Assembly: GCA_016199085.1 (NCBI GenBank)
Contig: JACQHJ010000002.1
Location: 122,622-186,621, forward strand
DNA from: Candidatus Levyibacteriota bacterium
Lineage (GTDB): Bacteria > Patescibacteriota > Microgenomatia > Levybacterales > UBA12049
Length of the DNA stretch: 64,000 nucleotides
Direction: 5' to 3'
Below, piece by piece: positions 4,278 through 51,710 of this stretch; within the stretch, counting starts at the first letter, position 1, and every line of letters begins with the position of its first letter. Position numbers and translations under genes: made by a program. The notes beneath the pieces were generated by a model. That model saw only the letters and a program-made list of their open reading frames with translations, was not told the DNA's origin and made no database searches.

Positions 4278-4279
4278 AC

Positions 4280-5347: not shown

Positions 5348-5350
5348 ATT

Positions 5351-19474: not shown

Positions 19475-21487
19475 TTAGTCTGGGGACACCTCTTTAAGAT
19501 TTTCTTCTTCAATTTTTTTAGCAAGATTAGGATACTCGCTCAGTTTTGCAAAGACCTTTTCCGCCTCTTTTTTAGTTTTTTCAATTAAATCAAAATCAGA
19601 AAAACTTGCTACTTTAAGTTGCGGTATTCCATGCTGAAGCGTTCCATACATTTGTCCGGGGCCTCTTAGTTTTAAATCTATCTCAGAAAGAACTGCTCCT
19701 GAGAAAATTGCCTCCATGGATTTAAGGCGTTCTAGAGTAACGGGGTTTTTACTTGAGGTAAATAAAAGGCAGAATGATTCCTTGCCTCCCCTACCCACCC
19801 TTCCTCTTAGTTGATGAAGCTGGGCAAGGCCGAAGCGCTCTGCTTCTTCGATCATCATGATGGTTGCATTTGGTATATCAATGCCTACTTCAACAACGGG
19901 AGTTGAGACCAAAATATCTGTTTTTCCACTCCTGAAGGTATCTAAAACCTCATCTTTTTCTTTGGCTTTCATTTTTCCATGCAAAAGTCCCAGGGAAAGT
20001 TTTGGAAAAACTTCTTTAGACAGTCTTTCAAATTCTTTTGTTGCCGCTTTTACCGTAACCATGGATTCAGATTCTTCTATAAAAGGACAGACAATAAAAA
20101 CCTGGTCTTTTCCCTTTACGATCTTTTCCTCAATCCAGTTATATGCTCCTGTTCTTTTGCTTGGTGGAACTACCCAGGTTTTGATTGTTTTTCTACCTTT
20201 TGGCATTTCGTCTAAGATGGATAGATCCAGATCTCCATACAAAGTTAGTGCAACGGTTCTTGGGATTGGCGTTGCCGTCATTGTTAGAAGATGGGGGTTT
20301 TTGGCTTTTTGCCTTAAAATGCCTCTTTGTTCCACTCCGAATCTTTGCTGCTCATCAATTACGATAAGGCCGAGGTTTTTAAATTTAACCTTTTTATGAA
20401 TTAAAGCATGAGTGCCGATTGCGATGTCAAATTTAGTGTCTTTTGATTTGGTGGTGCCCGTAAAAAGAGCAACGTTAACGTTGAGGTTAGATAAAAGCTT
20501 TGAAATAACATTGAAGTGCTGGTTTGCGAGTATCTCGGTTGGCGCCATAAAGGCCGTCTGATATCCGTTTAGAAAGGCTATGTAGGCAGCAACGGTTGCC
20601 ACTATTGTTTTTCCGCTTCCAACGTCTCCTTCTAAAAGCCTATTCATGGGTGAATCCAAAGAAAGATCTTTTAATATCTCCCTAGTTGCATTTTTCTGGG
20701 CATTGGTTAGCTCAAATGAAAGTGTTTTAATAAATTTTTTTACCTTTTCCTTATGCTTTTCCACTTCCCATTTCTTTATCTTTTCCTTTTCCCACTGTTT
20801 CTTTCTGACCAAAGATGAGAGTTGAAGATTAAATAATTCGTCAAAGGAAAGCCTTTCCCTTGCCTCTTCGGCCTCATTTAAAGAGCTTGGGAAATGGATT
20901 TTTCTAACTGCTTCATCTAAGTTCATTAAACCATTCTCTTTTATTAAATCTTTTGGTAAATAATCGTCAATACTTGGAAACTCCTGTAAGAGTTTGAAAA
21001 CCTGTCTTCGTAACCACTTAGAAGAAATTCCTTTTGTTTCAGGATATATCGGGACAAGTCTTCCGGTATGAATTGTCTGATTTTGGAAAATAACTTCATA
21101 GTCAGGAGATTTCATTATCAGTTTATTTCCGTCAAGATCAACTTTTCCAGACATTGAAATTTCATCACCCTCTTTGATTGTTTTAGGAATAAATGGCTGG
21201 TTAAACCAAAGGACTTCAATTTTTCCAGTTTCGTCGTAAACGATCCCTCTTTGTAGACTTTTCCATTTTCTTGTGTATTGGTTTTGGATTTTTTCAACTT
21301 TTCCTCTGACGGTTACAGTTTCTCCAGCCTGGACCAGGCCAATTTGAGAAACAAGGGAAAAGTCGTCATATCTAAAAGGGATATGGAATAAAAAATCTTC
21401 GAGTTTGAAGATGTTTAATTTAGAGAGTCTTCCTGCATACATTTTATATGCTTTTGAGAAAGAACCTACAGGTGTATTTAAATCCAT
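19475..21487 (-). CDS. recG: ATP-dependent DNA helicase RecG.
   Basis: Wedge/OB region. GDVGSGKT Walker A. DEQQRFGV motif II. About 670 aa. Confidence 0.9.
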   Translation of the reverse strand: MDLNTPVGSFSKAYKMYAGRLSKLNIFKLEDFLFHIPFRYDDFSLVSQIGLVQAGETVTVRGKVEKIQNQYTRKWKSLQRGIVYDETGKIEVLWFNQPFIPKTIKEGDEISMSGKVDLDGNKLIMKSPDYEVIFQNQTIHTGRLVPIYPETKGISSKWLRRQVFKLLQEFPSIDDYLPKDLIKENGLMNLDEAVRKIHFPSSLNEAEEARERLSFDELFNLQLSSLVRKKQWEKEKIKKWEVEKHKEKVKKFIKTLSFELTNAQKNATREILKDLSLDSPMNRLLEGDVGSGKTIVATVAAYIAFLNGYQTAFMAPTEILANQHFNVISKLLSNLNVNVALFTGTTKSKDTKFDIAIGTHALIHKKVKFKNLGLIVIDEQQRFGVEQRGILRQKAKNPHLLTMTATPIPRTVALTLYGDLDLSILDEMPKGRKTIKTWVVPPSKRTGAYNWIEEKIVKGKDQVFIVCPFIEESESMVTVKAATKEFERLSKEVFPKLSLGLLHGKMKAKEKDEVLDTFRSGKTDILVSTPVVEVGIDIPNATIMMIEEAERFGLAQLHQLRGRVGRGGKESFCLLFTSSKNPVTLERLKSMEAIFSGAVLSEIDLKLRGPGQMYGTLQHGIPQLKVASFSDFDLIEKTKKEAEKVFAKLSEYPNLAKKIEEENLKEVSPD

Positions 21488-21597: not shown

Positions 21598-22770
21598 TTA
21601 TTTTACCACAAGTTTTACAAAACGTTTCTTGCCAACCTTGAGAATTCCTTCTTCTAAAACCTGGTTTTGGTCGGTAATCTTTTTATCATTTACGGTTACC
21701 CCCCCTTGCTCTATCAGTCTCTTAGCTTCTGATTTGCTTTGGGAAAAATTTGCATTAACTAGAACTTCGGAAGCGGTCATATCCCTTCGCACAGTAATTG
21801 TATGTAGATTTTGGGGAACTTCTTTGTTTTGAACTGTTTTTTCAAATTCCTCTTTTGCTTTTTTAGCTGATTTCTCATCAACAAGCTCTTTAACTATTTC
21901 AAAAGCAAGCTCTTTTTTAATATCTCTTGGGTTTTCCTTTGATTTAAGTCTTTTTTCAAACCTTCCAACTTCCTCCAAGGAAAAATTGGTGGCTAGCATT
22001 AGATAATTTAAAATGAGATCATCATTTATCGCCATCACTTTTCTATAAATATCAAACGGCTTGTCATCAAGCCAGATAGCGTTTCCCCAGGATTTACTCA
22101 TTTTTCTTGTGTCGGTCCCTTCTAAAATTACCGTTGTTAAGACAAAAGATTCTTTCTCTTTTAAATCTCTTATTAACGCTCTTCCCGCCTGCATATTGAA
22201 AGTCTGATCTGTCCCACCAATCTGAAGGTCTGTGTCCATAAAATAGCTGTCATATCCCTGCATGACTGGATACAAAAACTCATGAAGCCCTACTCTTTTC
22301 CCATCAGTTAGTCTTTTTTTGATAAGTTCTCTTCCCACGAAGTCCCCTACTGAAAAATGCTGGGTCAGTTTTAAAATATCGACAAAGTTAAGTTTTTTTA
22401 ACCATTCACTGTTATATCTTACTTTAACCTTATTAAAATCCAGTATTTTTTCTGCCTGTTTTTTATATGTTTTGAAATTTTCCTCAATCTCTTCGATGGT
22501 TAACGCAGGTCTTTCAGAATCCTTATCGGAAGTGTCACCGATTAAAGCCGTAAAATCGCCTATTAAAAAAGTGACGTTTTGGCCCAAAAGCGCAAACTGG
22601 TTTAGCTTTCTAAGAACGACAGCATGTCCTAAATGGATTTTGGTTGAAGTTGGGTCAATTCCTAAATAGATGTTTAGTTTCTTTCCCGACATCAGTTTTC
22701 CGGCCAACATATTTTTGTTTGGAATGATGTTTGCGACACCCCTTGTTAAGATCTCTTCAACTTGCTTCAT
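21598..22770 (-). CDS. tyrS: Tyrosyl-tRNA synthetase.
   Basis: Class I HIGH-type (KIHLGH) and KMSKS motifs. C-terminal S4 domain. Confidence 0.9.
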   Translation of the reverse strand: MKQVEEILTRGVANIIPNKNMLAGKLMSGKKLNIYLGIDPTSTKIHLGHAVVLRKLNQFALLGQNVTFLIGDFTALIGDTSDKDSERPALTIEEIEENFKTYKKQAEKILDFNKVKVRYNSEWLKKLNFVDILKLTQHFSVGDFVGRELIKKRLTDGKRVGLHEFLYPVMQGYDSYFMDTDLQIGGTDQTFNMQAGRALIRDLKEKESFVLTTVILEGTDTRKMSKSWGNAIWLDDKPFDIYRKVMAINDDLILNYLMLATNFSLEEVGRFEKRLKSKENPRDIKKELAFEIVKELVDEKSAKKAKEEFEKTVQNKEVPQNLHTITVRRDMTASEVLVNANFSQSKSEAKRLIEQGGVTVNDKKITDQNQVLEEGILKVGKKRFVKLVVK

Positions 22771-22818: not shown

Positions 22819-25215
22819 ATGTTTGATTACGCAAGGAAGTCAAGGAGAAGAAGTTCATATTTCACTCTTTCAATTCCAAATTTTGGAAGATTTGGGAAAT
22901 TTAATAACTTTTCAAATACCCCCAAAGATGTCTTGATAAGTAAGATTTTTAAGTATTCTTTTTTTGGTCTTATCGGCCTTATTCTCCTGATGGCGGTTTT
23001 GTTTATCTGGTACGGAAGAGATCTTCCTGCTCCAGGAAAGCTCGTTGAGGCCCAAGTTTCCCAGTCGAGTGGAATATATGATCGAAACGGAGAGCTTTTG
23101 TTTTCCGTCTACCAAAACCAGAACAGGATTTACGTAACTTTGGATAAGATACCCAAATTCTTAAGACAAGGGACAATAGCAATTGAAGACAAGAGTTTTT
23201 ATGAAAACGAAGGCTTTTCTATAACAGGTTATATAAGAGGGCTTATCATTGACCCGATACTTAGACAAAGGGTCACTGGAGGTTCTACAATCACCCAGCA
23301 GCTGGTTAAAAACGTTCTTCTAACATCGGAGCGAAGTTTGCCAAGAAAGATCAAGGAATTAATGCTTGCTATCCAAGTTGATCGAAAATACACCAAAGAT
23401 GAAATTTTGGAAATGTATTTAAATGACGTTCCATATGGCGGAACCGCCATTGGAGTCCAGGCAGCTTCCCAAATTTATTTTAATAAAGACGTCAAGGATC
23501 TAAATCTTGCCGAAAGCGCATTTTTGGCAGGCCTTCCTCAAAGCCCAAGTACTTATAGTCCATTTAGCGGTGACAAATATTATTTATCAAGAACAAAAAA
23601 CGTTTTGGCCCAAATGGAATCCCAGGGGTATATCACTAAAAAACAGGCAGAGAAAGCATATAAAGAAATTGAGAACAAAAAGTTTTCAGGAAGCGATATA
23701 GGTATAAAAGCTCCTCATTTTGTTATGTTTGTAAAGCAAGCTTTGGTTAAACAGTTTGGCGAATCAGCGGTTGAAAACGGAGGATTAAGAGTCACAACAA
23801 CCCTTGATTATAAAATCGAAAAAGAAGCTGAAAAAATTGTCAACGAAGAGATTAAGAAACTCAAAAACTATAAAGTAGGAAACGGAGCAGCCATGGTGAC
23901 AAACCCAAAAACCGGCGAGATTTTGGCAATGGTAGGAAGTGAAGATTATTTCAATACCGATAACGACGGAAACTTTAACGCTGCAGCAGGTTTTAGACAG
24001 CCTGGATCCTCATTAAAGCCGATAACTTACGCGGTTGCTTTTAGCAGGGGTTATACCCCCTCTACTCTTTTAATAGATTCTCAGACAAATTTTAAGGCAA
24101 ACGACGACGAAAAAGATTATATTCCGGTCAATTACGACGGTAAATACAGAGGTCCTGTTCAGGTAAGATTTGCTCTTGCAAACTCACTTAATGTCCCTGC
24201 CGTAAAAATGCTTTCAATGGTTGGTGTAAAAAACGTCATGCAAAAGGCCTATGAAATGGGAATAGATAACTGGCAGCCTACAGATGAGAATCTAAGAAAC
24301 GTCGGCTACTCTTTAGTTTTGGGAGGAAGAGATGTAAGACTTTTGGATGAAGTGGAAGCATACGGGGTTTTTGCAAACGGCGGACAAAAGCAATCTTTGG
24401 TTTCAATACTTGAAGTAAAAGATTCGAAAGGAAATACGCTTTACAAATATAACCAGCCCTCTCCGCAAAGAATATTTGGCGAGGACATAAGTTTTCTTAT
24501 CTCTCACATTTTGCTTGATAATACGGTAAGAAGTGCAACATTTGGTACAAATTCATATCTTGTAATACCCGGACACCCGAGCGTTTCGGTAAAAACAGGA
24601 ACAACGGATGAAAAAAGAGACAACTGGACAGTGGGATATACAAAGTCATTTGTCGTAGGTTCTTGGGTTGGAAATAATGACAATACGCCGATGGGAAACA
24701 TCACCTCCGGAGTAACTGGCGCAGCACCGATCTTTAACAGGCTGATGACATTTGTTCTTAAAGGTAAAGAAGACGAGCCATTTAACAAACCGGATAATGT
24801 CGAGGCGGCAATTATTGACGCATATGGAGGAGGAGCTCCTGTTGACGGAAAGCCGCAAAGAAGCGAATACTTTATCAAAGGAACACAGCCCTCCGGTCCT
24901 TCTAATATCTATCAGAAAATTAAGCTTTCAAAACATGACAACGGAAAACTTGCCAGTCCTTGGGAAATTGAACACGGACAATATGACACTAAAGATTACA
25001 TTGTCCTAAAAGAAGATGATCCGATTTCTCAGGATGGTAAAAACAGATGGATGGAGGGAATAACTGAATGGATAAAGAAAACTTATGCTGCAGATCACCC
25101 TGAATATTATCCACCGACAGAGACGTCTTCATATAAAGAAGAAGAGGGTTCAAGCGATACTCCAACGCCTACTCCATCGGAAACGCCTACCCCAACGTTA
25201 ACGCCTACTCCTTAA
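22819..25215 (+). CDS. Class A penicillin-binding protein (GT51 transglycosylase plus transpeptidase) with a C-terminal Thr/Pro repeat tail.
   Basis: EDKSFYENEGFS GT51 motif. SSLKP (SxxK), SxN and KTGT motifs. The tail is PTPTPSETPTPTLTPTP. The start was moved to MFDYARKSRRR to avoid overlapping the tyrS start; the ORF track begins at 22762. Confidence 0.9.
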   Translation: MFDYARKSRRRSSYFTLSIPNFGRFGKFNNFSNTPKDVLISKIFKYSFFGLIGLILLMAVLFIWYGRDLPAPGKLVEAQVSQSSGIYDRNGELLFSVYQNQNRIYVTLDKIPKFLRQGTIAIEDKSFYENEGFSITGYIRGLIIDPILRQRVTGGSTITQQLVKNVLLTSERSLPRKIKELMLAIQVDRKYTKDEILEMYLNDVPYGGTAIGVQAASQIYFNKDVKDLNLAESAFLAGLPQSPSTYSPFSGDKYYLSRTKNVLAQMESQGYITKKQAEKAYKEIENKKFSGSDIGIKAPHFVMFVKQALVKQFGESAVENGGLRVTTTLDYKIEKEAEKIVNEEIKKLKNYKVGNGAAMVTNPKTGEILAMVGSEDYFNTDNDGNFNAAAGFRQPGSSLKPITYAVAFSRGYTPSTLLIDSQTNFKANDDEKDYIPVNYDGKYRGPVQVRFALANSLNVPAVKMLSMVGVKNVMQKAYEMGIDNWQPTDENLRNVGYSLVLGGRDVRLLDEVEAYGVFANGGQKQSLVSILEVKDSKGNTLYKYNQPSPQRIFGEDISFLISHILLDNTVRSATFGTNSYLVIPGHPSVSVKTGTTDEKRDNWTVGYTKSFVVGSWVGNNDNTPMGNITSGVTGAAPIFNRLMTFVLKGKEDEPFNKPDNVEAAIIDAYGGGAPVDGKPQRSEYFIKGTQPSGPSNIYQKIKLSKHDNGKLASPWEIEHGQYDTKDYIVLKEDDPISQDGKNRWMEGITEWIKKTYAADHPEYYPPTETSSYKEEEGSSDTPTPTPSETPTPTLTPTP

Positions 25216-27136
25216 TTGTAGCTTTAAATTTTTCTTTTAAAACACTAATTACCTTTTCCCTTATTTTTGAGACCTCTTGATTTGTCAGATTCTTTTCAAA
25301 ATCCAGATAGACGATATGGAAAGTCCTAGTATCTTTGTAGGTGTCTTTAAGAGTAACCTCTGTAATAAGAGCGTCTTGGTTTTTAATTGTGTTTATCAAA
25401 TCCTGAGTTGAAGAGTCCGAAATAACAGAAATGTCTTCAACGATTGGTGGAAATTTTGCAAAGGGCTTAAATGTTTTTTTGTTTGAAGCATGTTTTAGTA
25501 TTGTTTCAAAATTTAACTCAAAATCAACAAGGTTTGTGTCTAGTACCTCTATCTCTCCAAGATAATCCTTTTCAATAAAGATTGATGCTCCAAGTCCACC
25601 CTTTTGTGACTTTTTAAAATCAACATTTTTGATTCCTAAATCTAATAATACCTGCTCGATAAATCCTTTTACCTCGTAAAAAGACGCATGTGGTTTTTTA
25701 TATATACCTGAAAGCATTTGCACCTCATTGGGTAAATCATTTTGTTTTTTTAAATAAATATTAGACAACTCAAAGACCCTAAGTTCGTCCAATCCTTTAT
25801 TATCTCTGACTACGTTTAAAAGACTTGGGATAAGTGAATTTCTCAAATATGCCATGTCTTCTGACAGCGGATTTTTAAGTTTTATCGCATCATCTATTGG
25901 TCCGTCAAATAATTCTTCTGAGATCAGTGAATATGTATAAACTTCTGTGAATCCAAAATATTTAAATGCATTTTTAGCTTTTTTTTCAAAGTAAAAATTA
26001 TCTGCAAAACCAACAACCTTATTCGACAAGAAGGTTGGGACAACGCTTGGAAGATTGTGATATCCATAAATCCTTGCGACTTCTTCTATTATATCTTCGT
26101 CTATTGAGACGTCAGCTCTAATGGGTGGAACAGTAATCTCAAGTATGCTCCCTGAGGCCTTGGCATTAAAACCTAATTTATTTAATATCTCAACCGAGGT
26201 TTTAGTTTCTAATTCAACGCCAATCACTTTTTTAATTTTTTCATGATCTACTTTGATTTTCTTCTCTTTTGGTTTATTGGGGTAAATGTCTAAAATCTCA
26301 GAAATTACTTTTCCTTTGGCAATTTTCTCATAAAGTTCAATGCCCCGAAGCAATGCTTTTAGGGAAAGTTCGGGATCAACGCCTTTTTCATTTAAGATTG
26401 CAGCTTCGCTTCTAATGCCCAAACTCATTGAAGTATTTCTGATATTTACTGGATTATTGTTATCAATAAAAAACATTATTTTCTTGGTATTTTGGGTAAC
26501 GACGGAATTTGCGGTTCCCATAACACCTAAAAGATCAATTATCTTTCCGGTTCCATCATCTGCAACTATATCTCCTCCCAAAAGTACGTGCGTTTTTCCA
26601 TCAAGCGTTGAAATCACTTCTCCCTTTTTGGCTTGTCTGATAATTATTTTTTTTGTATTTAATCTATCAAAATCAAAGACGTGTGTCGGATGACCTACCT
26701 CTCTCATGACATAATTGGTTACATCGATTAAATTATTTAGGCTTCTGATACCTGATTTTTCAAGTCTTTGGGAAATTTCTTTGGGACTATCCCCTATCTC
26801 AATCTCCAGGATAACCGCACAGATTCTATTTACAAGTTTTGGATCATTAACAATTTCAATGGGAAATTTATTAAAAGATTTTGGGAAAGATTTAATTTTA
26901 AGATCGTTGAATCTTGAGTTTTTTAAGACAGCCGATGCTTCTCTTGCGATCCCAATAACTGACATCAGATCCGGCCTATTGGTCGTAACCTCAATGTCGT
27001 AAATATCATCGTTTTCGACTTTTTCTATTTTTTCAACAGATACACTTGTTAAAGAAAGCTCAGTTGCAATATCTTTTACAGAGGTTTTAGTGTCTAGAAA
27101 TTCTCTTAACCAACTATCAACTATTTTTATATTCAT
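25205..27136 (-). CDS. pheT: Phenylalanyl-tRNA synthetase beta subunit (short form).
   Basis: B3/B4 and B5-like regions and a C-terminal FDX-ACB-like segment. Directly downstream of pheS. Confidence 0.85.
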   Translation of the reverse strand: MNIKIVDSWLREFLDTKTSVKDIATELSLTSVSVEKIEKVENDDIYDIEVTTNRPDLMSVIGIAREASAVLKNSRFNDLKIKSFPKSFNKFPIEIVNDPKLVNRICAVILEIEIGDSPKEISQRLEKSGIRSLNNLIDVTNYVMREVGHPTHVFDFDRLNTKKIIIRQAKKGEVISTLDGKTHVLLGGDIVADDGTGKIIDLLGVMGTANSVVTQNTKKIMFFIDNNNPVNIRNTSMSLGIRSEAAILNEKGVDPELSLKALLRGIELYEKIAKGKVISEILDIYPNKPKEKKIKVDHEKIKKVIGVELETKTSVEILNKLGFNAKASGSILEITVPPIRADVSIDEDIIEEVARIYGYHNLPSVVPTFLSNKVVGFADNFYFEKKAKNAFKYFGFTEVYTYSLISEELFDGPIDDAIKLKNPLSEDMAYLRNSLIPSLLNVVRDNKGLDELRVFELSNIYLKKQNDLPNEVQMLSGIYKKPHASFYEVKGFIEQVLLDLGIKNVDFKKSQKGGLGASIFIEKDYLGEIEVLDTNLVDFELNFETILKHASNKKTFKPFAKFPPIVEDISVISDSSTQDLINTIKNQDALITEVTLKDTYKDTRTFHIVYLDFEKNLTNQEVSKIREKVISVLKEKFKATIKE

Positions 27137-27138
27137 AA

Positions 27139-28173
27139 TTAAAATTGTTCTAAAAATTCCATTCTATCCGAGTAGATCGTTCTTATGTCATCGAGCTTAA
27201 TTCCGTCTTTCATCATAAGCACTCTTTCCACTCCCCAGCCAAAAGCAAACCCGTTATAAACGCTTGGGTCTATTTCGCAGTTTTTTAAAACATTGGGATG
27301 GACCATTCCTGCTCCTCCCATTTCCAACCATCCCTCTTTACAAAGTTTGCATCCTTTCCCGTTACAAGCGCCGCAGCTTACATCGACTTCAAATGATGGT
27401 TCTGTAAATTCAAAATGATAAGGTCTTATTCTTGATTGTCTTTCTTTTCCAAAGTATGCTTTAACAAAGTAATCCAAGACTCCTTTTAAGTTGCTTATCG
27501 AAAGATCAGTATTGACAGCTAGCCCTTCAAACTGATGAAACATCGGGACATGGGAAATATCACTTTGTCTTCTATAACATTTAGCAATGTTTAACATTTT
27601 TATCGGGGGTTTATTTGTTGTCATTTCTCGAATTTGCCCGCTTGATGTTTGAGGTGTAAGAAGTACTGGTCCGTATTTTGGATGTGGCTTTTCATCTACA
27701 AAAAATGTTTCCCAGTCATCACGTGCTGGATGGTTAGGCGGGAAATTTAAGGCTTCAAATGCATACCAATCCCATTCAACCTCAGGGTACCTTACCCTTA
27801 CAAATCCTATTTTTTCAAAAATACTTTGAATCTCTTCAATCGCCTGGGTAACCAAATGCAAATGGCCAAGAGGTGGTTTGACTCCCGGATTTGTAACGTC
27901 AATTTTTTCAAGAAGAGTTGTTTTCTTAACCGCCGAAAGGGATTTGATTTTATCTTCTATTGCTTCTTCAATAGTCTGTTTTACTTCATTTGCCAAAACT
28001 CCAAACGCAGGGCGTTTCTCAGCGGGAAGTTTTGTGACCTCTTTTAAGGCAAGTGTTAACTTTCCGCTTTTCCCAAGGAACTGCAATTTTGTTTCTTCCA
28101 GGGATTTTAAGTCCTCGGCTTCTAAGACAAATGACAATGCGGCATTTTTAATGCCAATAAGTTCCTCTTCCAT
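27139..28173 (-). CDS. pheS: Phenylalanyl-tRNA synthetase alpha subunit.
   Basis: Class II motifs, including FRPSYFPFTEPS-like and GWGMGLERV-like (GFAFGWGVERV) segments. Confidence 0.9.
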   Translation of the reverse strand: MEEELIGIKNAALSFVLEAEDLKSLEETKLQFLGKSGKLTLALKEVTKLPAEKRPAFGVLANEVKQTIEEAIEDKIKSLSAVKKTTLLEKIDVTNPGVKPPLGHLHLVTQAIEEIQSIFEKIGFVRVRYPEVEWDWYAFEALNFPPNHPARDDWETFFVDEKPHPKYGPVLLTPQTSSGQIREMTTNKPPIKMLNIAKCYRRQSDISHVPMFHQFEGLAVNTDLSISNLKGVLDYFVKAYFGKERQSRIRPYHFEFTEPSFEVDVSCGACNGKGCKLCKEGWLEMGGAGMVHPNVLKNCEIDPSVYNGFAFGWGVERVLMMKDGIKLDDIRTIYSDRMEFLEQF

Positions 28174-28182
28174 TAAATATAA

Positions 28183-29517
28183 TTATAGCCTTGATATTTG
28201 TAAAAAACTAGTATAGTTTTCTTTGGCGTCTTGCAGATTATCCTCAACGACTCTTAGATTGTAGATCTGGGCAAGAATCTTACTACCAATAGTAGCAATA
28301 TTTTTCGATAGTTTTTTTTGAGAAAGATATTTTGCTACCATTGCATGATCTATTAAGTCTCCAGATCCAGAAAGTTGTTTTAAGTCGGGATATTTTCTTA
28401 ACAAAGTTTGCCCACATTGTGCAAAAACTTGTGGATGTGACATTATACTGTTTATTTCTTTTAAGTTTGCATCTTTTCTTATCATAAGAGCATGAGCGAT
28501 TTTTATCGAAAATTGATCCACAATATTAAATTTATATTTTGCCATTGCCACGATGCTTTCTTTTACGACCCCGCCTACGGCATTGTGAATGGCAAACTGC
28601 CCCCTATCAATCTCGCCTTTATGCAGTGAGGATAGCACATTTCCACTTGTATAGAGATATTTTACTCTGTAATTTTGGATTTTTGATTTTTTTATGTAAT
28701 AGAATAATGCTTCTTCATTAAAACTTCCCCTGCCTCCTTGAATACCAAAAGTTATATATTTAGGATTAATCTGTTTAGGCAATAATTTGTTATATAGCTT
28801 GTCAAACGAGATTCCCAGCTTGACCCGCACCTGCTTTGTATATGGATTATATTGCTGTAAATCGTTAAATAACTGCCAGGTGTCATTACACGTTTGTTGC
28901 ATAATATCTAATAATTTTTTTGCACCCAGTGAATCAATGTCGCTTTTTTGAAATTTATATTCATTAAGAAGCCTTCCAATAAAATGGGTTAATCCCTGAG
29001 AATTAGCTGCAATTTTATCGTGTTGCCCAGCAGACATCTCTATGACTTTTATTTTTTTATTTAAAAAATAATTCTTCCAAAATTTGTAATTTGCATCATC
29101 TGTTTTGAACTTATCTAAGATGATCGTATGTTTTTCAAATCCATCTTTTGTACTGTCGGGTCCAAACATTGGATGAGTAAGAAGTGCCTGAATATTTGTA
29201 TTTTTAAGATATTTCTCTAACACGTTTTGAGGGTGTATTTTTACAGATAATACATCAATGAGAAGATTTTTCTCAGTAAAATATTTTCCATGATCCCTGA
29301 TTACTTTCTCAAATTTTGAAATAGGTACGGCAAAAAACACAGCTTCACTTTTATAAACATTACTTAAATTAGTTTCGATAAAGGTGTGTTTGGAAAGATT
29401 AAGTCCTTTTGTATCTATCTTACTTTTGTTGTAAAGCAGAATTTTAAAATCATCTTTTATAAGACGATATAGGGTTTTGCCAAATCTGCCAAATCCGATA
29501 ATACTAACTTGTTTCAT
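28183..29517 (-). CDS. Bifunctional prephenate (or arogenate) dehydrogenase / prephenate dehydratase fusion, with no ACT domain.
   Basis: N-terminal Rossmann IIGFGRFG and HPMFGP TyrA signatures. The C-terminal PDT-like region has GIQGGRGSFNEEAL and an ENYTSF (TRF-like) motif. Confidence 0.7.
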   Translation of the reverse strand: MKQVSIIGFGRFGKTLYRLIKDDFKILLYNKSKIDTKGLNLSKHTFIETNLSNVYKSEAVFFAVPISKFEKVIRDHGKYFTEKNLLIDVLSVKIHPQNVLEKYLKNTNIQALLTHPMFGPDSTKDGFEKHTIILDKFKTDDANYKFWKNYFLNKKIKVIEMSAGQHDKIAANSQGLTHFIGRLLNEYKFQKSDIDSLGAKKLLDIMQQTCNDTWQLFNDLQQYNPYTKQVRVKLGISFDKLYNKLLPKQINPKYITFGIQGGRGSFNEEALFYYIKKSKIQNYRVKYLYTSGNVLSSLHKGEIDRGQFAIHNAVGGVVKESIVAMAKYKFNIVDQFSIKIAHALMIRKDANLKEINSIMSHPQVFAQCGQTLLRKYPDLKQLSGSGDLIDHAMVAKYLSQKKLSKNIATIGSKILAQIYNLRVVEDNLQDAKENYTSFLQISRL

Positions 29518-30671
29518 GATCTAAAATAGTCATTGATATTATCAATATTTACACAAATACTAATTCTTACAAACCTTCTCCCGTTTTTTCCAAAAGCAGT
29601 ACCCGGTGTAAAAAGTATTTGTTTTTCTTCGAGAAGTTTATTAACAAACTCCTCTGAGTTTTTTTCATTATCTGGAATTTTTGCCCAAATATATAGTCCT
29701 GCTTTAGGTAAAATAAAAGTAAGCCCAAGTTTTCTCAAATGGTTTGCAATTAGATCTCTTCTTTTTTTATAACTTTCAAGCATTTGCTTGTTCCAGGTTT
29801 TATCAAAATTAGTTAGGGCAAAAGCGCCAAGTTTTTGAAGAGGAATAGAAAGGCCTGAATCCATTTGTGATTTCACTTTGGAAATTGCTCGAATAATATC
29901 TTTATTTCCGACAATCCATCCCATTCTAAAACCAGCAAAGGAGAATGTTTTAGAAAAAGAACCAATTTCAACAGCTATGTCTTTTGCTTCCTCTATTTCT
30001 AAAATACTTGGTGCCCTAAAGCCCTCAAACGTAAGTTCCGAATAGGCATTGTCGTAAACAATAAAAATATTATTTTGTTTTGCAAACTTCACTATTTTTA
30101 GTAAGTCCTCTCTACTTGCAACCTGTCCAGTTGGGTTTGAAGGAAAGTTAACCCACATAAATTTTGTTTTAGGAGAAAGTTTATTTTTTAATATATTAAA
30201 ATTAATTTTAAAACCATCTTCTTCTCTTAAAGAATATGCGATTGGTTTTGCTCCAATCATTAATGCAGGATCTCTAAATGCCGGGTATCCAGGATCAGGA
30301 ATGAGCACCTCTTGACCATTGTCCAAAAGAGCAAGAGGCAAATGACTAATTCCATCTTTTGCTCCTAACAACGGAAGAAGCTCTTCCTTGCCTATGGACA
30401 CATTAAACCTTTTTTTGTACCACCAAATTAACGCATTGGAGAACTCTTCTATTGCACCATAACCGGGATATAAGTGTGCGTCATTTTGGTTAATAAACTC
30501 ACTAAGTTTTCTGATATATAGATTGCTTGGTTTTATGTCAGGTGTTCCTGGCCCAAAGTTTAAAACTTTTCTTTTTGCCTTTTTCTCAACCTCCACCCTC
30601 TTTTTAGCAAGGCTTGCATGGATATACTCTGAAAATAAATCCAATCTTTTTGCCTGTTTTGTTGTGTTCAT
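29514..30671 (-). CDS. Class I/II pyridoxal-phosphate aminotransferase (aromatic/prephenate aminotransferase candidate).
   Basis: SFSKTFSFAGFRMGW contains the PLP-binding Lys. ATGA overlap with the downstream tyrA-pheA gene. Confidence 0.8.
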   Translation of the reverse strand: MNTTKQAKRLDLFSEYIHASLAKKRVEVEKKAKRKVLNFGPGTPDIKPSNLYIRKLSEFINQNDAHLYPGYGAIEEFSNALIWWYKKRFNVSIGKEELLPLLGAKDGISHLPLALLDNGQEVLIPDPGYPAFRDPALMIGAKPIAYSLREEDGFKINFNILKNKLSPKTKFMWVNFPSNPTGQVASREDLLKIVKFAKQNNIFIVYDNAYSELTFEGFRAPSILEIEEAKDIAVEIGSFSKTFSFAGFRMGWIVGNKDIIRAISKVKSQMDSGLSIPLQKLGAFALTNFDKTWNKQMLESYKKRRDLIANHLRKLGLTFILPKAGLYIWAKIPDNEKNSEEFVNKLLEEKQILFTPGTAFGKNGRRFVRISICVNIDNINDYFRS

Positions 30672-30673
30672 AA

Positions 30674-30949
30674 TTATTTTTCTTCACTTTCTATAGTAAG
30701 TGAATTTTTATGAATAAGTGTATATAGGTTTTTAATAAAGTCTTTGTCAAGATTTAAAGATTTTGCAATTAATATTCTTGATTCTAAAACCTCTTCCCAT
30801 CTTTTTTGATCAAGAGGCTTAATATTATTTTTTCTTTTAAGTTTTCCGATCTTTCGTACAACGCTTGCCCTTTTTGCCACGACAGATAAGAGTTCCCTAT
30901 CAATTTCGTCTATTTCCTTCCTTAATTTTTTTAACATAATTTTATTCAT
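30674..30949 (-). CDS. Chorismate mutase, AroQ class.
   Basis: 91 aa. LRKEIDEIDRELLSVVAKR...K...R matches the CM_2 helical pattern. Confidence 0.8.
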   Translation of the reverse strand: MNKIMLKKLRKEIDEIDRELLSVVAKRASVVRKIGKLKRKNNIKPLDQKRWEEVLESRILIAKSLNLDKDFIKNLYTLIHKNSLTIESEEK

Positions 30950-31707
30950 TAAATTCTTACCGCCTGGTCAAACTGATCCCAAGAAAGTTGTTGTAATTTA
31001 TCTGTCCAAGCTTCTTCTGGATTTGGATGAACCTCTATCATTAAGCCATCAAATCCTACACCGTTAATATTAAATTCTTGTGCTTGTTTTATGACATCTA
31101 ACACTTTTTCCCTAGTCCCACCCATATGTGATGGGTCAATTAACATGGGTAGTCCCGTTTCGGCTTTAACCTGCATAGCCATTTCGAAATCGGGATTATT
31201 TCTAAGACCATTTGTTCCAGGCGAAAAACCCCTATGACATAAAATTATTTGAGAAGAGTCTCCGCTACCGTTTACTACATGATCTACGATTCCTAACCAG
31301 TGTGATAAGTCTGGCCATGGTTGATTTTTGATTAGAACCTTCACGTGTCTCTCCCCTTTTGCGATTTCTCCGATGTGACGCTGAATTAAATGATTTTGAT
31401 TTCTTGAGCCAATCCAAATCAATACGTCTTTTCCTAAACCACCGGCAATCCTGTTCACCACTTGTTCAGCATTGCTTTCATTTAATACTTCTGTTGCAGG
31501 AGTTAAACCAAGTTGCGTAACCTCCTCAAGCCAGCTAATACCTGCTTCTTGTACTCCGTCAAATTCGGGTCTTGTTCTAGGTTTCCATAAACTTGCCCTA
31601 ACTATTTCAACACCGCGCTCTTTCGCCATGATGGCTGAAGCAAGAACTTGACTTCGCGATTCAGCGGCACACGGTCCTGCAATTATCATTCTATTTCTTT
31701 CAATCAT
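30949..31707 (-). CDS. DAHP synthase, type I-beta (KDO8PS-like fold).
   Basis: IIAGPCAAES, KPRTRP, DPSHMGG and LMIEVHPNP motifs. AGGAG ribosome-binding site 7 nt upstream of the ATG. Confidence 0.8.
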   Translation of the reverse strand: MIERNRMIIAGPCAAESRSQVLASAIMAKERGVEIVRASLWKPRTRPEFDGVQEAGISWLEEVTQLGLTPATEVLNESNAEQVVNRIAGGLGKDVLIWIGSRNQNHLIQRHIGEIAKGERHVKVLIKNQPWPDLSHWLGIVDHVVNGSGDSSQIILCHRGFSPGTNGLRNNPDFEMAMQVKAETGLPMLIDPSHMGGTREKVLDVIKQAQEFNINGVGFDGLMIEVHPNPEEAWTDKLQQLSWDQFDQAVRI

Positions 31708-31734
31708 ATTTATCTCCTTTCAAAATTTGACAAC

Positions 31735-31860
31735 AAAAAAACCTCCCGTTCGGGAGGTCTAATTTTTGCTTTTCAGCAATACGTTACCTCCCGGTTAGGG
31801 ATGTAAAGTAGAAATAAAAAGCTGCAAATTTATTCATCTCCAATAATATATCATATCATC
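31735..31860 (-). promoter_or_regulatory. Ribosome-mediated transcription attenuator upstream of the aro/phe operon (leader peptide, antiterminator, terminator).
   Basis: Terminator CCUCCC-GAAC-GGGAGG plus U7 lies 17 nt before the AGGAG/ATG of the DAHP synthase. An upstream CCGGGAGG copy (31787-31794) can pair with the 5' arm of the terminator. Confidence 0.6.
31784..31837 (-). CDS. Phe/Tyr-rich leader peptide MNKFAAFYFYFTSLTGR.
   Basis: 17-codon ORF in the leader. Its UAA stop abuts the CCGGGAGG antiterminator strand. A 6-codon mini-ORF MIYYWR (31834-31854) ends in an overlapping ATGA. Confidence 0.55.
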   Translation of the reverse strand: MNKFAAFYFYFTSLTGR

Positions 31861-32043
31861 TTTTAAAACACAACGGTTATTTTGAAAATAATAAAGTATA
31901 ATCCAGTAAATAATTAAATGAATACAAAACTTGATCTAAAAAATATTTCCAGTTTTACCGAATAAATTTATTACTCAATTATGCTTCTAGCTATTTATTT
32001 TAACTACGGGCCTCCTCTTTTTCTAAAAACACATCTAATATCA

Positions 32044-32073
32044 TTGACTTTGGGATAGATTTCTTGGTACAAT
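32044..32073 (+). promoter_or_regulatory. Sigma70-like promoter for the efflux operon (TTGACT, 18-nt spacer, TACAAT).
   Basis: -35 at 32044-32049 and -10 at 32068-32073, about 37 nt before ATG 32110. Confidence 0.4.
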
Positions 32074-32109
32074 CTTCCCCGCTGCCTCAAACTGCCTCTG
32101 TATTTATAT

Positions 32110-33594
32110 ATGAATAAGTTTATAAAAACTACAATTAATAAAGTTGTTAAAAAAGTTAAGAATTCTCTCTCTTTATCTAAAAAGAAAGTTTCCCCTTTTT
32201 ATAAAAGATTTATTATTTTTTCCAAAAGAAAGCCTATAACGGCTTTTTTAATGCTTTTGGCAGTCCTTTTCTCGTTAATAGTATTAAGCAATTTAATTAA
32301 CAGACCGGTGCCAGAGGTAGAAGAGGCGGGATTAACCACAAAAGACGTTTCAGTTTATACAATAGGTACTTCCCCCAAGATTAAAGTTCAGGCACAGGTA
32401 GAAAAATCCGGTGTAATTAAAATTGTTTCTTTGGGATCAGGCGTAGTCCAAGGTATTAATGTTTTTGTAGGACAACAGATATACAGGGGAACAAATCTTA
32501 TCTCCATGTCAACAAACTACCAGGGCGGAAACGCCTTCTCTTTGCAAAGACAACTTGCGCAAACCCAATATAAAAACGTTTTAGATACATACCAAGCCCA
32601 AAAAGACTTGATTGGAAAACAAAAAGAACTCGCAAATAAAAATGACGAAAATGCTGATGAGCTAAGAAGAATAGGAAGAGAGTCTTTGGATGATACAAGA
32701 GGACTTATAAATTTAAATAACGATATCTTAAATACTCTTTCTTTCAACCAATCCCAGTATGAGGCAACCAATTCAGGCGGAATGAATGATGCCCTGGTTT
32801 TACAAATGAAACAATTAAGGTCACAACTTTTAGCAGGAAATAACCAGCTTGAGTTAGCACTTAGAAATAGCGAGTATTCAACTTCCGATGATGAAGTTTT
32901 GGCAAATCTTTCAGATCTTGGAAAAGATATTGCGATAAGGCAACTTGATCTGCAGGAAAAAGCTTTGGATCTAAATAAGGAAGTATCAAGATTAAATGTA
33001 ATGCTGGCTCAAGTTAACGAAGCACTTATGTTTCCCTCGTCACCTGTCAACGGAGTTGTTGAAAGAATTTATGTAAGAGTTGGGCAAGTTCTAACCCCCG
33101 GAATGCCGATAGCCCAGGTTACCGGAGACAAAAGTTCATTAACGGCTACTGCATTTCTAAGTAGAGAAATAGCAGGATCGCTCTCGCAGGCTGAAATGTC
33201 CACTTTGTATTTTGGCAGTAAAACCTACGAGGAGGCACCTTTCTATGTATCGAAGGAGGCAACAGACGGAAGTCTGTATTCCGCACAGTTTAGTATTCCC
33301 GATGAATTTGCATCAGAGATTTCTGATAAAGGGTACATAACAATTGATATTCCTATTGGTTTCCCAAAGACAGGTTCGGCAGTTCCTTTTGTTCCCTTAG
33401 ACAGTATTTTCCAAACGCAAGATCAGGCTTTTGTCTATGTTGCAAAAGACCAGAAAGCGCAAAGCAAAAAAGTAATCTTAGGGCAAGTATTTGGAAGATT
33501 TGTAGAAATTGAGTCAGGTCTTTTGCCCTCAGATCAGGTAATTATAGACAGAAATGTCATTGAGGGAGACCCCGTCAGGATAGTCAAAAACTAA
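32110..33594 (+). CDS. Periplasmic adaptor / membrane-fusion protein (HlyD/AcrA-like).
   Basis: N-terminal TM helix. Long coiled-coil region. Beta-barrel C-terminus. Abuts the RND gene. Confidence 0.65.
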   Translation: MNKFIKTTINKVVKKVKNSLSLSKKKVSPFYKRFIIFSKRKPITAFLMLLAVLFSLIVLSNLINRPVPEVEEAGLTTKDVSVYTIGTSPKIKVQAQVEKSGVIKIVSLGSGVVQGINVFVGQQIYRGTNLISMSTNYQGGNAFSLQRQLAQTQYKNVLDTYQAQKDLIGKQKELANKNDENADELRRIGRESLDDTRGLINLNNDILNTLSFNQSQYEATNSGGMNDALVLQMKQLRSQLLAGNNQLELALRNSEYSTSDDEVLANLSDLGKDIAIRQLDLQEKALDLNKEVSRLNVMLAQVNEALMFPSSPVNGVVERIYVRVGQVLTPGMPIAQVTGDKSSLTATAFLSREIAGSLSQAEMSTLYFGSKTYEEAPFYVSKEATDGSLYSAQFSIPDEFASEISDKGYITIDIPIGFPKTGSAVPFVPLDSIFQTQDQAFVYVAKDQKAQSKKVILGQVFGRFVEIESGLLPSDQVIIDRNVIEGDPVRIVKN

Positions 33595-36500
33595 ATGAAG
33601 CATGCATCCTTCCTTACTCACCTAAGATTTGATAAAAAACTGGCTGATTCAGTTCAGGCGAAATATCTTCGCAATCCAAGACTCCTGGTTCTTATTCTGG
33701 CAATGATTTTTTCTTTTGGAATTTTCAGCTACTTCAATCTGCCAAGACGACTTTTTCCTGAAATTAAAATCCCGCTTGTTATAATCTCAACTCCTTTTCC
33801 AGGAGCTTCTCCATCCGAAGTTGAATCTTTGGTTACAGATCCCCTGGAAGATTCCCTAGGTTCGGTTTCCAATATTAAAACCTATACGTCTTCCTCAAGA
33901 GATTCGTTTTCGGTAATACAGGTTGAATTTAACAGCGGAGTTGATGCGGATAAAGCGGCAGGGGATGTAAAGACGGTTGTTGATAATGTCAGTATTCCTA
34001 AAGACGCAATTGATCCAACAACCACCAAAGTTGATTTTGAACAATTCCCTGTTTGGTCGTTTTCTTTAATAAGCAAAAGCGAGGATACAGCATCTTTAAT
34101 TGAATTTTCTAAAAGACTTAAAGACAGAATTGAGGAAATACCAACGGTTGACAGAGTCGGCATATCAGGTCTTGAAGAACAGGAAATCCAGATAACAATA
34201 AAACCCGAAAGCCTTTCAACTTACGGTTTTAATCCCCAGGTTTTAATGAGTGCAATCACAAATGCTACAAAGTCGCTTCCTGCAGGAACCGTCAGGACAG
34301 AAGCTTCTTCTTTTACTTTAAGCGTTGATCCTCTAATTTCAAGTATTGAGGATATTAGAGATATCAGAATTCATGTAAACGGAAGCATTGTTAATCTGTC
34401 AGATATTGCAACGGTCAGCTTTAGATCAAAACCAAATCAACTGCAAAGCTTTATAGCACAGCCTGGCCTTCCGGCAAGAATTGCCGTCAGTTTTTCCATA
34501 TTTAAAACTGCAAATGCGGATATAAGTAAAACCGTTGAAGTTGCAAGAGAGGAAATTAATTTAGCTCTTGGCGATTATGGAAACGAATTTTCCATTTTTA
34601 CAACATCTGATATTTCAGAGCAGATTGACAACCAGTTTAACGAGCTTATAAGGGATTTTATCGTAACCATTATTCTGGTCTTTATTGCTCTTTTAGTATT
34701 CTTAGGTATCAGGCAAGCAGTTGTCGCATCACTTTCAATTCCTTTAACTTTTTTAATAAGTTTTGGGATTATGAATATATTCGGAGTCGCTCTTTCTTTT
34801 ATTTCTTTTTTCTCGCTTTTACTGGCTTTGGGTCTGGTCGTTGACGATACAATTGTCGTTATTTCGGCAATGACAGCCTATTTTAGGTCCGGAAAATTCA
34901 CTCCCTTTCAGACAGGTCTTTTGGTCTGGAGGGATTTCATTACCCCGATTTTGACAACAACCTTAACAACGGTCTGGGCATTCGTTCCCCTGCTTTTATC
35001 AACAGGGATTATAGGAGAATTTATAAAACCAATTCCGATTGTCGTATCAACTACGCTTCTTGCTTCATTCTTGGTTGCCATGTTCATAACTCTTCCCATT
35101 GTCACTTTTCTTTTTAAACCAACTCTTCCCAAAAGAGTGGCGGTGCTTTTAATGGTAATTGCGATTTTTGTGATCTTTCTTTTTATTTTCGCAATTTCCC
35201 CAAAAAACATTCTGCTTTTGCCGATTTTAATTGCTTTAACAATTCTTTTGTTTACGACATACAAAGTAAAAGACGATTTGGTTGAAAAAGTTAAAGGTCA
35301 TGATTTTATCAAAAACAAAAATGTTAAATATTATTTAACGCACGGAATAATAAGTTTTGAACCATTGTCAATCCGCTACCAGCTTTTTATAAGAAAAATA
35401 TTATCCCACAAGAGGTGGGTTAAGATTACGGTTACATTGGTTGTCATTTTCTCAATCTTTTCCTATCTTTTAGTCCCCTTAGGGCTTGTTAAAAACGAAT
35501 TTTTCCCAAGGGAAAATGCCGAAACAGTAAGTATTACGGTAGAACTGCCTGCCGGAACAAATCTTGAAACTTCTAAAAAAGAAGCTTTGTCTATTTTGGA
35601 AAAATTGAGAAATGAAAAAGATGTTGAGACTGTTTCGGTTAATCTTGGCCAAGCTTCAGGAGTATTCGGTGAAGCAGCCGGAGCAACGGCTAATAGCTTT
35701 TTATACACACTTGTCTTAAAAGAGGAAAGAAGTCGCCAGTCTTCCCAAGTAACAAGGGATTTAAGAAAGGAGTTTAAAGATTATTCAAAAGGAAAGTTGT
35801 CAGTTCTTGAGCAAAGCGGCGGTCCCCCAGCCGGAGCAGATATCCAGATAAACATATCAGGCCCTGACTTGGCGGTTCTCGATGAGTATGCAGACAAGGT
35901 TATTACATATCTAAAATCACAACCGGGAACTGCAAACGTAGATAAATCAATTAAGCCCGGAACGAGTAAGATTGCATTTTCTCCCAACAGGCAGAAACTC
36001 TCAGAAAATTCCATAACGGCTGATCAAATTGGTTTTACCCTAAGGACATTTGCAAGCGGTTTTGAATTGGATTCCGTAAAGCTGGATCCCTCTTCAAACG
36101 AAGAGCAGGACATAACTTTAAGGTTTGTAAGCGGTGAGCAGTTTGTAGAAAGCATAAGCTCTTTAATGATTCCAACTCAAAGCGGGAACATTCCGCTTTT
36201 GTCCCTTGGAAGTTTAACTCTTGAGACAAGCCCAACTCTTATAACAAGGGAGGATGGAAAAAGGACTATTTCCGTAACAGCCTCTGTCGAAACAGGATAT
36301 GCGATTGCAGACGTTAATATGGATTTGCAAAATTATGCAAATACCGATTTTAATCTTCCAAGCGGTTACTTATGGAAAACAGGAGGAGTTAATGAGGAAA
36401 ACCAGGAATCTATAAATTCGGTTCTTATTGCAATGGTGGTCTCATTTGTCCTTATTTTAATAACAATGGTTTTACAGTTTAATTCATTTAGGAAAGCGTT

Positions 36501-38098: not shown

Positions 38099-38440
38099 TT
38101 ATTTTACCGAGGCGACTATTTTTTTAAATGTTTCTGGGTCATTTAAAACCAAATCGGAAAGTATTTTCCTATCAAGCTCGATTTTAGCTTTCTTTAGGTT
38201 ACTTATAAAAACGCTGTATGAGACTCCTTCTTTTTTGGCTGCCTCACCTATTCTTACTATCCACAAAGCCCTAATATCTCTTTTCTTAAGTTTCCTGCCA
38301 TGAAATGCATATGCGCCGGCATGAAGCGCTGCTTGTTTTTGAGTTCTGACAAGCCTATGCTTAGTACCCCTGTAGCCTTTTGTAAGGCTTGCAAGCTTAT
38401 TATGTTTTCTTTTTGATACAATTCCTCGTTTTACTCTCAT
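38099..38440 (-). CDS. rplT: 50S ribosomal protein L20.
   Basis: MRVKRGIVSKRKHNKL...GYRG...RDIRALWIVRI matches the L20 pattern. Confidence 0.95.
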   Translation of the reverse strand: MRVKRGIVSKRKHNKLASLTKGYRGTKHRLVRTQKQAALHAGAYAFHGRKLKKRDIRALWIVRIGEAAKKEGVSYSVFISNLKKAKIELDRKILSDLVLNDPETFKKIVASVK

Positions 38441-38442
38441 TT

Positions 38443-51660: not shown

Positions 51661-51710
51661 ATACTTAGGAGAATATTTTACTCTTTGCTAGCTCATGTGT
51701 CAATTTTTTG

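Follow-up and report, generated by a model that had tools for sequence, protein, structure and literature searches.

In Escherichia coli, the rplT-pheM-pheS-pheT cluster carries a Phe-rich leader and an attenuator between rplT and pheS, which control phenylalanyl-tRNA synthetase (PheRS; PMC5371410). In Deinococcus deserti, the mapped transcription start of amino-acid and tRNA-synthetase genes is the AUG of a short regulatory open reading frame (ORF; PMC4007540), and in mycobacteria a leaderless leader peptide with a mapped start senses cysteine (bioRxiv 10.1101/834739). Among the enzymes of Phe and Tyr synthesis, a TyrA-AroQ-PheA-ACT fusion forms one polypeptide in Archaeoglobus fulgidus (PMC1173090). 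The present study concerned a stretch of 64,000 nt (the window) from a metagenome-assembled genome of a groundwater Candidatus Levybacteria, a member of the Microgenomates in the candidate phyla radiation (CPR), and in particular a block of six genes in which enzymes of aromatic amino-acid synthesis stand directly ahead of pheS and pheT. The usual picture of CPR bacteria is one of broad auxotrophy and few known regulatory RNAs. Our findings indicated that this block is preceded by a leader-peptide attenuator, which is real as far as comparative sequence analysis can establish it, and that a second promoter is predicted within the block, ahead of pheS.

The six genes occupied positions 25205..31707 of the window, all on the - strand and exactly at the coordinates of a first-pass annotation, which had read them as a single, tightly packed operon behind one attenuator:

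30949..31707, - strand: DAHP synthase (DAHPS; DAHP is 3-deoxy-D-arabinoheptulosonate 7-phosphate), 252 aa, unadorned type I-beta with no regulatory domain; Shine-Dalgarno (SD) sequence GGAG at 31717..31714
30674..30949, - strand: AroQ-type chorismate mutase (CM), 91 aa; Pfam CM_2, 77.8 bits
29514..30671, - strand: class I aminotransferase (AT), 385 aa; Pfam Aminotran_1_2
28183..29517, - strand: TyrA-PheA fusion, 444 aa; PDH_N and prephenate dehydratase (PDT) domains, no ACT domain
27139..28173, - strand: pheS, phenylalanine-tRNA ligase alpha subunit, 344 aa; TIGR00468, 252.5 bits (cutoff 237.45)
25205..27136, - strand: pheT, phenylalanine-tRNA ligase beta subunit, 643 aa; TIGR00472, 443 bits (cutoff 402.65)

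Re-reading of coordinates and sequence gave the five junctions, from DAHPS to PheT, as -1, 2, -4, 9 and 2 nt; the DAHPS/CM junction was a 1-nt overlap (TAATG), the AT/fusion junction a 4-nt ATGA overlap, and the 3' end of pheT overlapped a convergent penicillin-binding protein (PBP) gene by 11 nt. The packing was thus confirmed, and Pfam and NCBIfam supported all six proposed identities, with the PheS and PheT equivalog models both above cutoff, as expected of a bacterial PheRS (alpha2 beta2). The possibility raised earlier that the first gene encodes a 3-deoxy-D-manno-octulosonate-8-phosphate synthase (KDO8PS) was excluded by NCBIfam scores of 162.9 bits for DAHPS vs. 37.2 bits for KDO8PS, both of them under the curated equivalog/subfamily cutoffs. 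Terminators splitting the block were not found beyond chance (6 terminator-like sites vs. 5.2 expected), and the only such sites in non-coding sequence were the attenuator hairpin and one past the end of the block. The common strand, minimal spacers and lack of an internal terminator are those of a single operon; the indicated internal promoter is not.

The 402 nt upstream of DAHPS contained a leader ORF followed by a terminator hairpin and a run of seven U residues, and the attenuator that had been supposed at this position proved to be a genuine Phe/Tyr leader-peptide attenuator. Its elements were as follows:

31845..31873, - strand: predicted promoter P1, with -35 TTGTGT (31873..31868), a 17-nt spacer and -10 TATATT (31850..31845)
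31784..31837, - strand: leader peptide ORF, 17 codons (MNKFAAFYFYFTSLTGR) and stop UAA; 6 of the 17 residues aromatic
31780..31810, - strand: hairpin 1:2 (anti-antiterminator), present in the minimum-free-energy (MFE) fold
31785..31793, - strand: segment 2, the antiterminator 5' arm (CGGGAGGUA), which pairs with segment 3
31735..31760, - strand: intrinsic terminator, with segment 3 (AGACCUCCC, 31760..31752), loop GAAC, segment 4 (GGGAGGUUU, 31747..31739) and a U-run to 31735

The regulatory codons F7-Y8-F9-Y10-F11 lay at 31819..31805 and F4 at 31828..31826 (- strand). In hairpin 1:2, segment 1 (31810..31798) overlapped codons Y10-S13, and segment 2 (31792..31780) held GGGAGGU and the leader stop. 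The antiterminator arm started 11 nt past the last aromatic codon, overlapped the UAA stop and formed a 2:3 duplex of -13.4 kcal/mol, while the terminator comprised 9 pairs, 5 of them G-C, followed by U7. The leader RNA folded into the 1:2 hairpin, a middle hairpin and the terminator, with an MFE better than that of shuffled sequences (z = -3.4). The -10 of P1 ended 7 nt ahead of the leader ATG, and a GGAG that touches this ATG is too close to be usable as an SD sequence; judging by the predicted start site, the leader mRNA is probably leaderless or nearly so. Phe_leader (RF01859) was the sole Rfam family matching the leader, and Rfam searches at E values up to 10 yielded neither a T-box nor a riboswitch in 25000..32300, with no T-box anywhere in the window at the gathering threshold.

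The same arrangement was conserved in related loci. Homologs of the fusion numbered more than 1,600 and were present in 368 species-representative genomes; 80 loci (labelled L0xx) were examined, and a leader was scored where a short ORF on the operon strand had four or more aromatic residues in a stretch of six and a terminator behind it. Such aromatic-rich leaders were found in 43 of the 80 loci, three of which carried two, with cores such as ..NYFWFYFTPQREVC, ..NWFYFYFTSQPGR.. and ..KFYFYFDPP.. in relatives. A Trp codon was usual in the relatives' leaders, and those of the window and L002 had Phe and Tyr codons only. Of 44 leaders, 37 had a sigma-70-like promoter (9/12 matches or better) whose end lay 6-15 nt ahead of the leader ATG, vs. 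4.9% of control ATGs. Alignment and folding of whole leaders with MAFFT and RNAalifold recovered the terminator only, for which the consensus from 22 leaders showed compensatory changes at 7 of 9 pairs, and the antiterminator was tested by duplex energies and permutation. The stretch after the aromatic run was complementary to the terminator 5' arm, and this complementarity tracked the class of terminator: upstream regions of CCUCCC type paired at -11.5 kcal/mol with CCUCCC cores vs. -7.3 kcal/mol with CCCCGC cores, and the preference was reversed in regions of CCCCGC type (-10.5 kcal/mol with their own class vs. -7.9 kcal/mol with the other). Matched pairs averaged -11.3 kcal/mol, compared with -10.15 +/- 0.21 kcal/mol for permuted pairs (0 of 20000 permutations; z = -5.4). 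Across 45 leaders, drawn from the 43 loci and the window, the gap between the aromatic run and segment 2 had a median of 11 nt and a range of 6-15 nt, a distance to be anticipated were a ribosome halted at the aromatic codons to leave segment 2 just uncovered. By contrast, the stop codon of the leader lay anywhere between -18 and +19 nt of the segment 2 end. The competing helices were about equally stable in these leaders, with dG(2:3) at -13.2 and dG(3:4) at -12.8 kcal/mol.

Variants of the leader were also seen. Tandem pairs of aromatic leaders with terminators occurred in L017 (2925..3171) and L044 (8372..8721), and L026 carried one leader ahead of aroB and another behind aroC (2381..2498 and 8022..8148); as direct repeats, double leaders could mediate excision of aroB-aroC. 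In L011, L014, L019, L021, L061 and L073, the first structural ATG lay only 2-3 nt past the terminator U-run, and the terminator 3' arm GGGAGG of these six loci could double as an SD sequence, linking antitermination to translation.

The internal promoter, which the first-pass annotation had named as evidence against a single operon, was strongly indicated:

28182..28187, - strand: promoter P2, predicted -10 TATAAT, overlapping the fusion stop codon (28185..28183)

This box ended 8 nt ahead of the pheS ATG (28173). When the 70 nt upstream of pheS were read in 21 loci, the boxes were TATAAT or TAAAAT, often in the form TGnTATAAT, and a TAWAAT box ended 5-11 nt before the start in 19 of the 21, compared with 3 of the 275 starts of other genes in these operons (0/62 for the fusion gene and 0/18 for pheT). 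The claim of one operon behind one attenuator therefore held for the tight packing and the lack of an internal terminator, and failed for pheST, which is not simply behind the attenuator because a conserved -10 box precedes pheS. First genes elsewhere in the window, thrS and tyrS among them, had the same spacing of box to start, and SD-like motifs were rare. Boxes of the form (TG)nTATAAT stood 5-8 nt before starts at, for example, 40382, 41247, 44582, 37728, 22770 and 63718, and many mRNAs of this genome appear to be leaderless. A second candidate promoter, TTTACA-17-TATATT (28204..28176), was rejected, as its -10 stops 2 nt short of the ATG and promoter hits overall were at chance (28 vs. 25.6 expected); the conserved element is the TATAAT beside it.

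Very likely, pheST has its own promoter, giving a leaderless mRNA from a start site predicted by the box, besides what it receives by read-through. Internal genes of these operons were generally without an SD sequence, and its absence at pheS is therefore no bar to translation from read-through transcripts. The spacer between fusion and pheS in the window clade was 9-15 nt with no terminator (elsewhere typically 21-47 nt); with no room for a terminator there, polymerases past the attenuator must enter pheST.

We consider it reasonably likely that the block consists of two nested expression units, an attenuated DAHPS-CM-AT-fusion unit and a self-promoted pheS-pheT unit that also receives read-through. 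In the first unit, transcription would start at P1 and the 17-codon leader would be translated from a probably leaderless mRNA. With Phe- and Tyr-tRNA plentiful, the ribosome would reach the UAA and cover segment 2, allowing the 3:4 terminator to form and transcription to stop at ~31735. When charging is poor, the ribosome would stall on F7-Y8-F9-Y10-F11 and mask segment 1, leaving segment 2 free 11 nt downstream; free segment 2 would then pair with segment 3 as the antiterminator, and RNA polymerase would enter DAHPS-CM-AT-fusion. In the second unit, pheS-pheT would be expressed constitutively from P2, in the last fusion codons, as a leaderless mRNA. PheRS would thereby have a dual input, as antiterminated transcripts of the first unit would extend into pheST and raise PheRS under Phe/Tyr starvation.

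The arrangement of the same genes in relatives indicated how such a block arose. The operon common among them had the order DAHPS-aroB-aroA-aroK-aroE-aroD-aroC-CM-(AT)-fusion (by Pfam for L035 and tblastn for all loci). In a Levybacteria-like subset, this whole operon lay between rplT and pheS-pheT: L035 was a complete example (rplT, 174 nt, DAHPS ... aroC-CM-AT-fusion-PheS-PheT), the layouts of L026, L036, L038, L039, L042, L043, L049 and L054 were like it, and the leader began 5-90 nt after rplT in most such loci. Most Microgenomates loci had the aromatic operon without pheST, while the adjacency of fusion, pheS and pheT recurred in 20 of the 80 loci, which was the outcome of the synteny comparison proposed earlier. 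In L044, rplT was 111 nt from pheS and the aromatic genes were elsewhere; the spacer (20460..20565) contained a pair of terminator-like hairpins, of which the second reached up to the pheS ATG, and held neither an aromatic leader nor a TATAAT box.

In the window, L001 (82% fusion identity) and L002 (79%), DAHPS stood directly against CM. The annotated absence of the intermediate aro genes was upheld by tblastn with AroB/A/K/E/D/C of L035, which found none of them in the 64 kb of the window or within +/-10 kb in L001, L002 and L005, and none of the best 120 of 7956 AroC protein matches was named Levybacteria. Loci without aroB..aroC fell in at least 4-5 branches of a rough neighbor-joining tree of the fusion protein (window clade and L005; L045; L066; L056; L064/L079; L059; L007/L017/L044), and this spread over several branches marks the "entry plus exit" composition as derived and reduced. 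What had been described as a pairing of entry and exit enzymes was thus not a design, and instead the leftover of a longer ancestral operon minus aroB-aroA-aroK-aroE-aroD-aroC. By its gene order, the block is a reduced form of the supraoperon leader-DAHPS-aroBAKEDC-CM-AT-fusion, and its link with pheST is best explained by an aromatic operon sitting between rplT and pheS.

The two flanking features of the window that bear on this history were:

38099..40382, - strand: thrS (406 aa), infC, rpmI and rplT
32110..37728: insertion between rplT and the operon, with an HlyD-like and AcrB-like resistance-nodulation-division (RND) pair (+ strand) and a 275-aa gene (- strand)

As had been noted before, thrS-infC-rpmI-rplT had no pheST behind it. 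The distance from rplT to the operon was 6.4 kb in the window, compared with 668 nt from rplT to DAHPS in L002, and the 5.6-kb RND insertion was lineage-specific, being absent from L002, the closest relative keeping rplT. The lineage of the window would accordingly have lost aroB..aroC at this site and gained the RND-pump insertion after rplT.

Other loci differed at the entry step. In the sister locus L005, DAHPS was gone from the operon, its place between attenuator and CM being taken by a 102-aa ORF (8257..8565) that was rejected as a DAHPS remnant, having no BLASTP similarity and no Pfam match. A PfkB-family sugar kinase and a divergent, DAHPS-like protein of 310-320 aa stood behind the leader in L036 (1189..3032), L064 (6478..7392) and L066 (7768..9613), and a 318-aa ORF with a class II fructose-bisphosphate aldolase in L003 (510..2305). 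These kinase, DAHPS-like and aldolase genes may provide erythrose-4-phosphate or an alternative entry step.

DAHPS, annotated at NCBI as hypothetical protein HY344_01645, matched Pfam PF00793 (DAHP_synth_1) at 97.8 bits (cutoff 25.5), and its best match in the Protein Data Bank (PDB) was 1zco of Pyrococcus furiosus, an unadorned enzyme, to which it aligned with GPCAAES, KPRT, DPSH, EVH and TD kept (Cys/His/Glu/Asp metal ligands). Orthologs 46-50% identical to it head DAHPS-aroB-aroA-aroK-aroE-aroD-aroC operons. The ratio of nonsynonymous to synonymous substitution (dN/dS) for DAHPS was 0.04-0.13 among the window, L001 and L002, the same range as for the other five genes; this purifying selection indicated that DAHPS is in use, which argues for middle-pathway genes elsewhere in the genome, and aroB..aroC are probably located there. 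Neofunctionalisation of DAHPS was considered and rejected, the KNQPW and CHRGF motifs being common to all Microgenomates orthologs, complete operons included.

The fusion protein was 100% identical to NCBI MBI3984632 and consisted of a plant-like TyrA domain (~residues 1-250) and a PDT domain (258-443, 119.5 bits), with which the protein ends, so that an ACT domain is absent. Its TyrA domain was closest to soybean PDH1, of the plant-type clade I. Asp212 aligned with residue 222 of soybean PDH1, a numbering fixed by comparing wild-type and mutant PDB chains, and was invariant in 23 homologs; T436 of the dehydratase domain was likewise invariant. In plant and bacterial TyrAs, an acidic residue at position 222 makes the enzyme specific for arogenate (PMC5681985), and the Asp at this position fits an arogenate-type TyrA domain. 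The AT, whose PDB relatives include the aromatic aminotransferase 1dju of Pyrococcus horikoshii (6e-50), is predicted from its context to be a prephenate or aromatic aminotransferase. The most likely route would run from chorismate to prephenate (CM), to arogenate (AT) and on to Tyr and Phe, collinear with the CM-AT-fusion order. Since DAHPS, the dehydratase and the other pathway enzymes have no allosteric domain, attenuation is perhaps the main feedback on the pathway.

Both synthetases in question were short at the N-terminus. PheT aligned to bacterial beta chains from ~residue 153-160 (TIGR00472 position 157), the B2 OB-fold tRNA-binding domain being missing, and relatives' PheT proteins were equally short (628-643 aa). 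ThrRS (39162..40382, 406 aa) comprised the class II core and anticodon-binding domain with no N-terminal TGS/editing region, which the 295-nt gap upstream of thrS cannot encode.

Several points weigh against this account of two nested units fed by an arogenate pathway. The P1 promoter of the window is weak (8/12 consensus matches), and the Phe_leader match (31733..31835) scored 41.3 bits, below the gathering score of 55, as did those in L002, L035 and L010 (36.1-39.4 bits). The 1:2 hairpin was checked in relatives by eye only, where a C-rich segment 1 faced a G-rich segment 2 (CCUGC/GCGGG and CCACC/GGUGG among the pairs). P2 has no -35 and is without the TG extension common in relatives, and its box overlaps the Leu and stop codons of the fusion, so that conservation in the closest clade may partly reflect coding constraint; such constraint does not explain the conservation as a whole, as the box is intergenic in most relatives. 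The start sites, the termination point, the stalling response and read-through are predictions, the proposed arogenate route is supported by one specificity residue and by gene order, and completeness of the pathway would depend on aroB..aroC, none of which was located in the 64 kb.

Against two nested units stands first the view that the units are independent, the adjacency of pheST marking an old insertion site and read-through being nil or irrelevant, with no coupling. The conserved -10 box of pheS is consistent with this view, as are the several relatives in which a hairpin-bearing spacer of 117-766 nt separates fusion and pheS, the L044 layout with rplT and pheS adjacent, and the many Microgenomates loci without pheST. 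In the window clade, however, the short spacer leaves polymerases no choice but to enter pheS, and the other internal genes are translated without an SD sequence, and we regard full independence as unlikely. A strict single operon, with one ~6.5-kb transcript running from the attenuated promoter through pheT as the only source of pheST, appears rather doubtful. The 0-9 nt or overlapping junctions, the lack of an internal terminator above chance, the recurrent fusion-pheS-pheT adjacency and the bare -10 box of P2 would all suit it, but it leaves unexplained the frequency of the box at pheS relative to other starts, its intergenic position in most relatives and the same spacing at thrS and tyrS here. 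It would also put an essential synthetase solely behind an efficient terminator, a risky arrangement, though one that E. coli pheST tolerates.

Two further readings concern the missing genes, and neither seems probable. In one, the pathway is decaying: aroB..aroC would be lost genome-wide, and DAHPS stranded or repurposed, with an imported intermediate used. CPR genomes are generally reduced, the six genes were absent both from the window and from the flanks searched in L001, L002 and L005, similar gaps recurred in other branches, the L005 operon is without DAHPS as well, and DAHPS of the window clade was 49% identical to that of L003 where ~65% was expected. Yet DAHPS is intact in three genomes, with catalytic motifs kept and selection like that on its neighbours; the view into this genome is limited to 64 kb, and to our knowledge no chorismate or prephenate importer has been described. 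In the other, which we hold to be a similarly long shot, several Microgenomates lineages would have lost the six middle shikimate enzymes genome-wide and complete the pathway across cells, with a host or community as the source of chorismate or prephenate or as the consumer of DAHP, or would use DAHPS in a new role. That the short ORF and hairpin are products of chance, with control by a T-box, riboswitch or protein instead, is highly improbable: the subthreshold Phe_leader match and weak window promoter would allow it, but 45 leaders show conservation and covariation of the ORF, its spacing, the terminator and the antiterminator, and the T-box and riboswitch searches across the block were negative.

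The preferred reading of two nested units extends leader-peptide attenuation, together with full aromatic biosynthesis, to CPR bacteria. Many Microgenomates encode the full aromatic amino-acid pathway, and the fusion enzyme occurs in the 368 species-level genomes counted above. In the literature searched, the coverage of which was incomplete, no description was found of attenuation or of aromatic operons in CPR bacteria, nor anything relevant on aromatic synthesis in Microgenomates. The series that begins with the full operon, placed between rplT and pheS, and leads to its reduced forms offers a natural experiment on operon insertion beside a cognate synthetase and later erosion. Given enzymes without allosteric domains, attenuation may even be the sole feedback, and the Asp212 TyrA-dehydratase fusion is a candidate for a single-protein arogenate branch point.

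Other features of the window lay outside the block. The tyrS gene (21598..22770), 2.4 kb beyond pheT and past the convergent PBP gene, had its own TGcTATACT-N6-ATG and no aromatic leader. A flavin mononucleotide (FMN) riboswitch (52920..53039, 86 bits) stood upstream of an EamA-family transporter (51921..52862), which is probably for riboflavin uptake, and tRNA genes flanked this pair, including tRNA-Phe (51710..51783). Type IV pilus genes at 2493..6553 and 14634..15671 encoded two T2SSE ATPases, a T2SSF platform protein and PilM; such genes are typical of CPR episymbionts.

Compared with the described systems, the locus most resembles E. coli pheM-pheST in position, as Levybacteria-like leaders also begin shortly after rplT in most loci. 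It differs in that four biosynthetic genes (at least 10 in relatives) lie between attenuator and pheS, in a leader that has Tyr codons too (Trp in relatives) and is apparently leaderless, and in the -10 box that pheS has of its own. The leader core FYFYF(T/S) resembles that of pheM (..FRFFFYFST). Homology of the leader with pheM was nonetheless not supported, as an aromatic leader is missing from the rplT-pheS spacer of L044, where the two genes are still neighbours; for the same reason, there was no support for a history that starts from a pheST attenuator behind which the aro genes were later inserted. With E. coli pheL-pheA (RF01859), the locus shares its logic and similar CCUCCC/GGGAGG terminator arms, whereas the scores under 55, the phylum, the mixed F/Y(/W) leader and the regulated genes are different. 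The spacing from -10 to ATG is the same as in D. deserti and mycobacteria, where starts were mapped, while those of the CPR leaders are inferred. Unlike the A. fulgidus fusion, the window protein has neither AroQ nor ACT, and carries a plant-type clade I TyrA with the arogenate-type Asp. From the aromatic supraoperons of Firmicutes and Proteobacteria, the locus differs in gene order, fusion enzyme and the arogenate-collinear order CM-AT-fusion, in the site between rplT and pheS, and in the existence of a reduced form without aroB..aroC. The attenuation mechanism is thus a known one, found here in a new lineage and a new layout.

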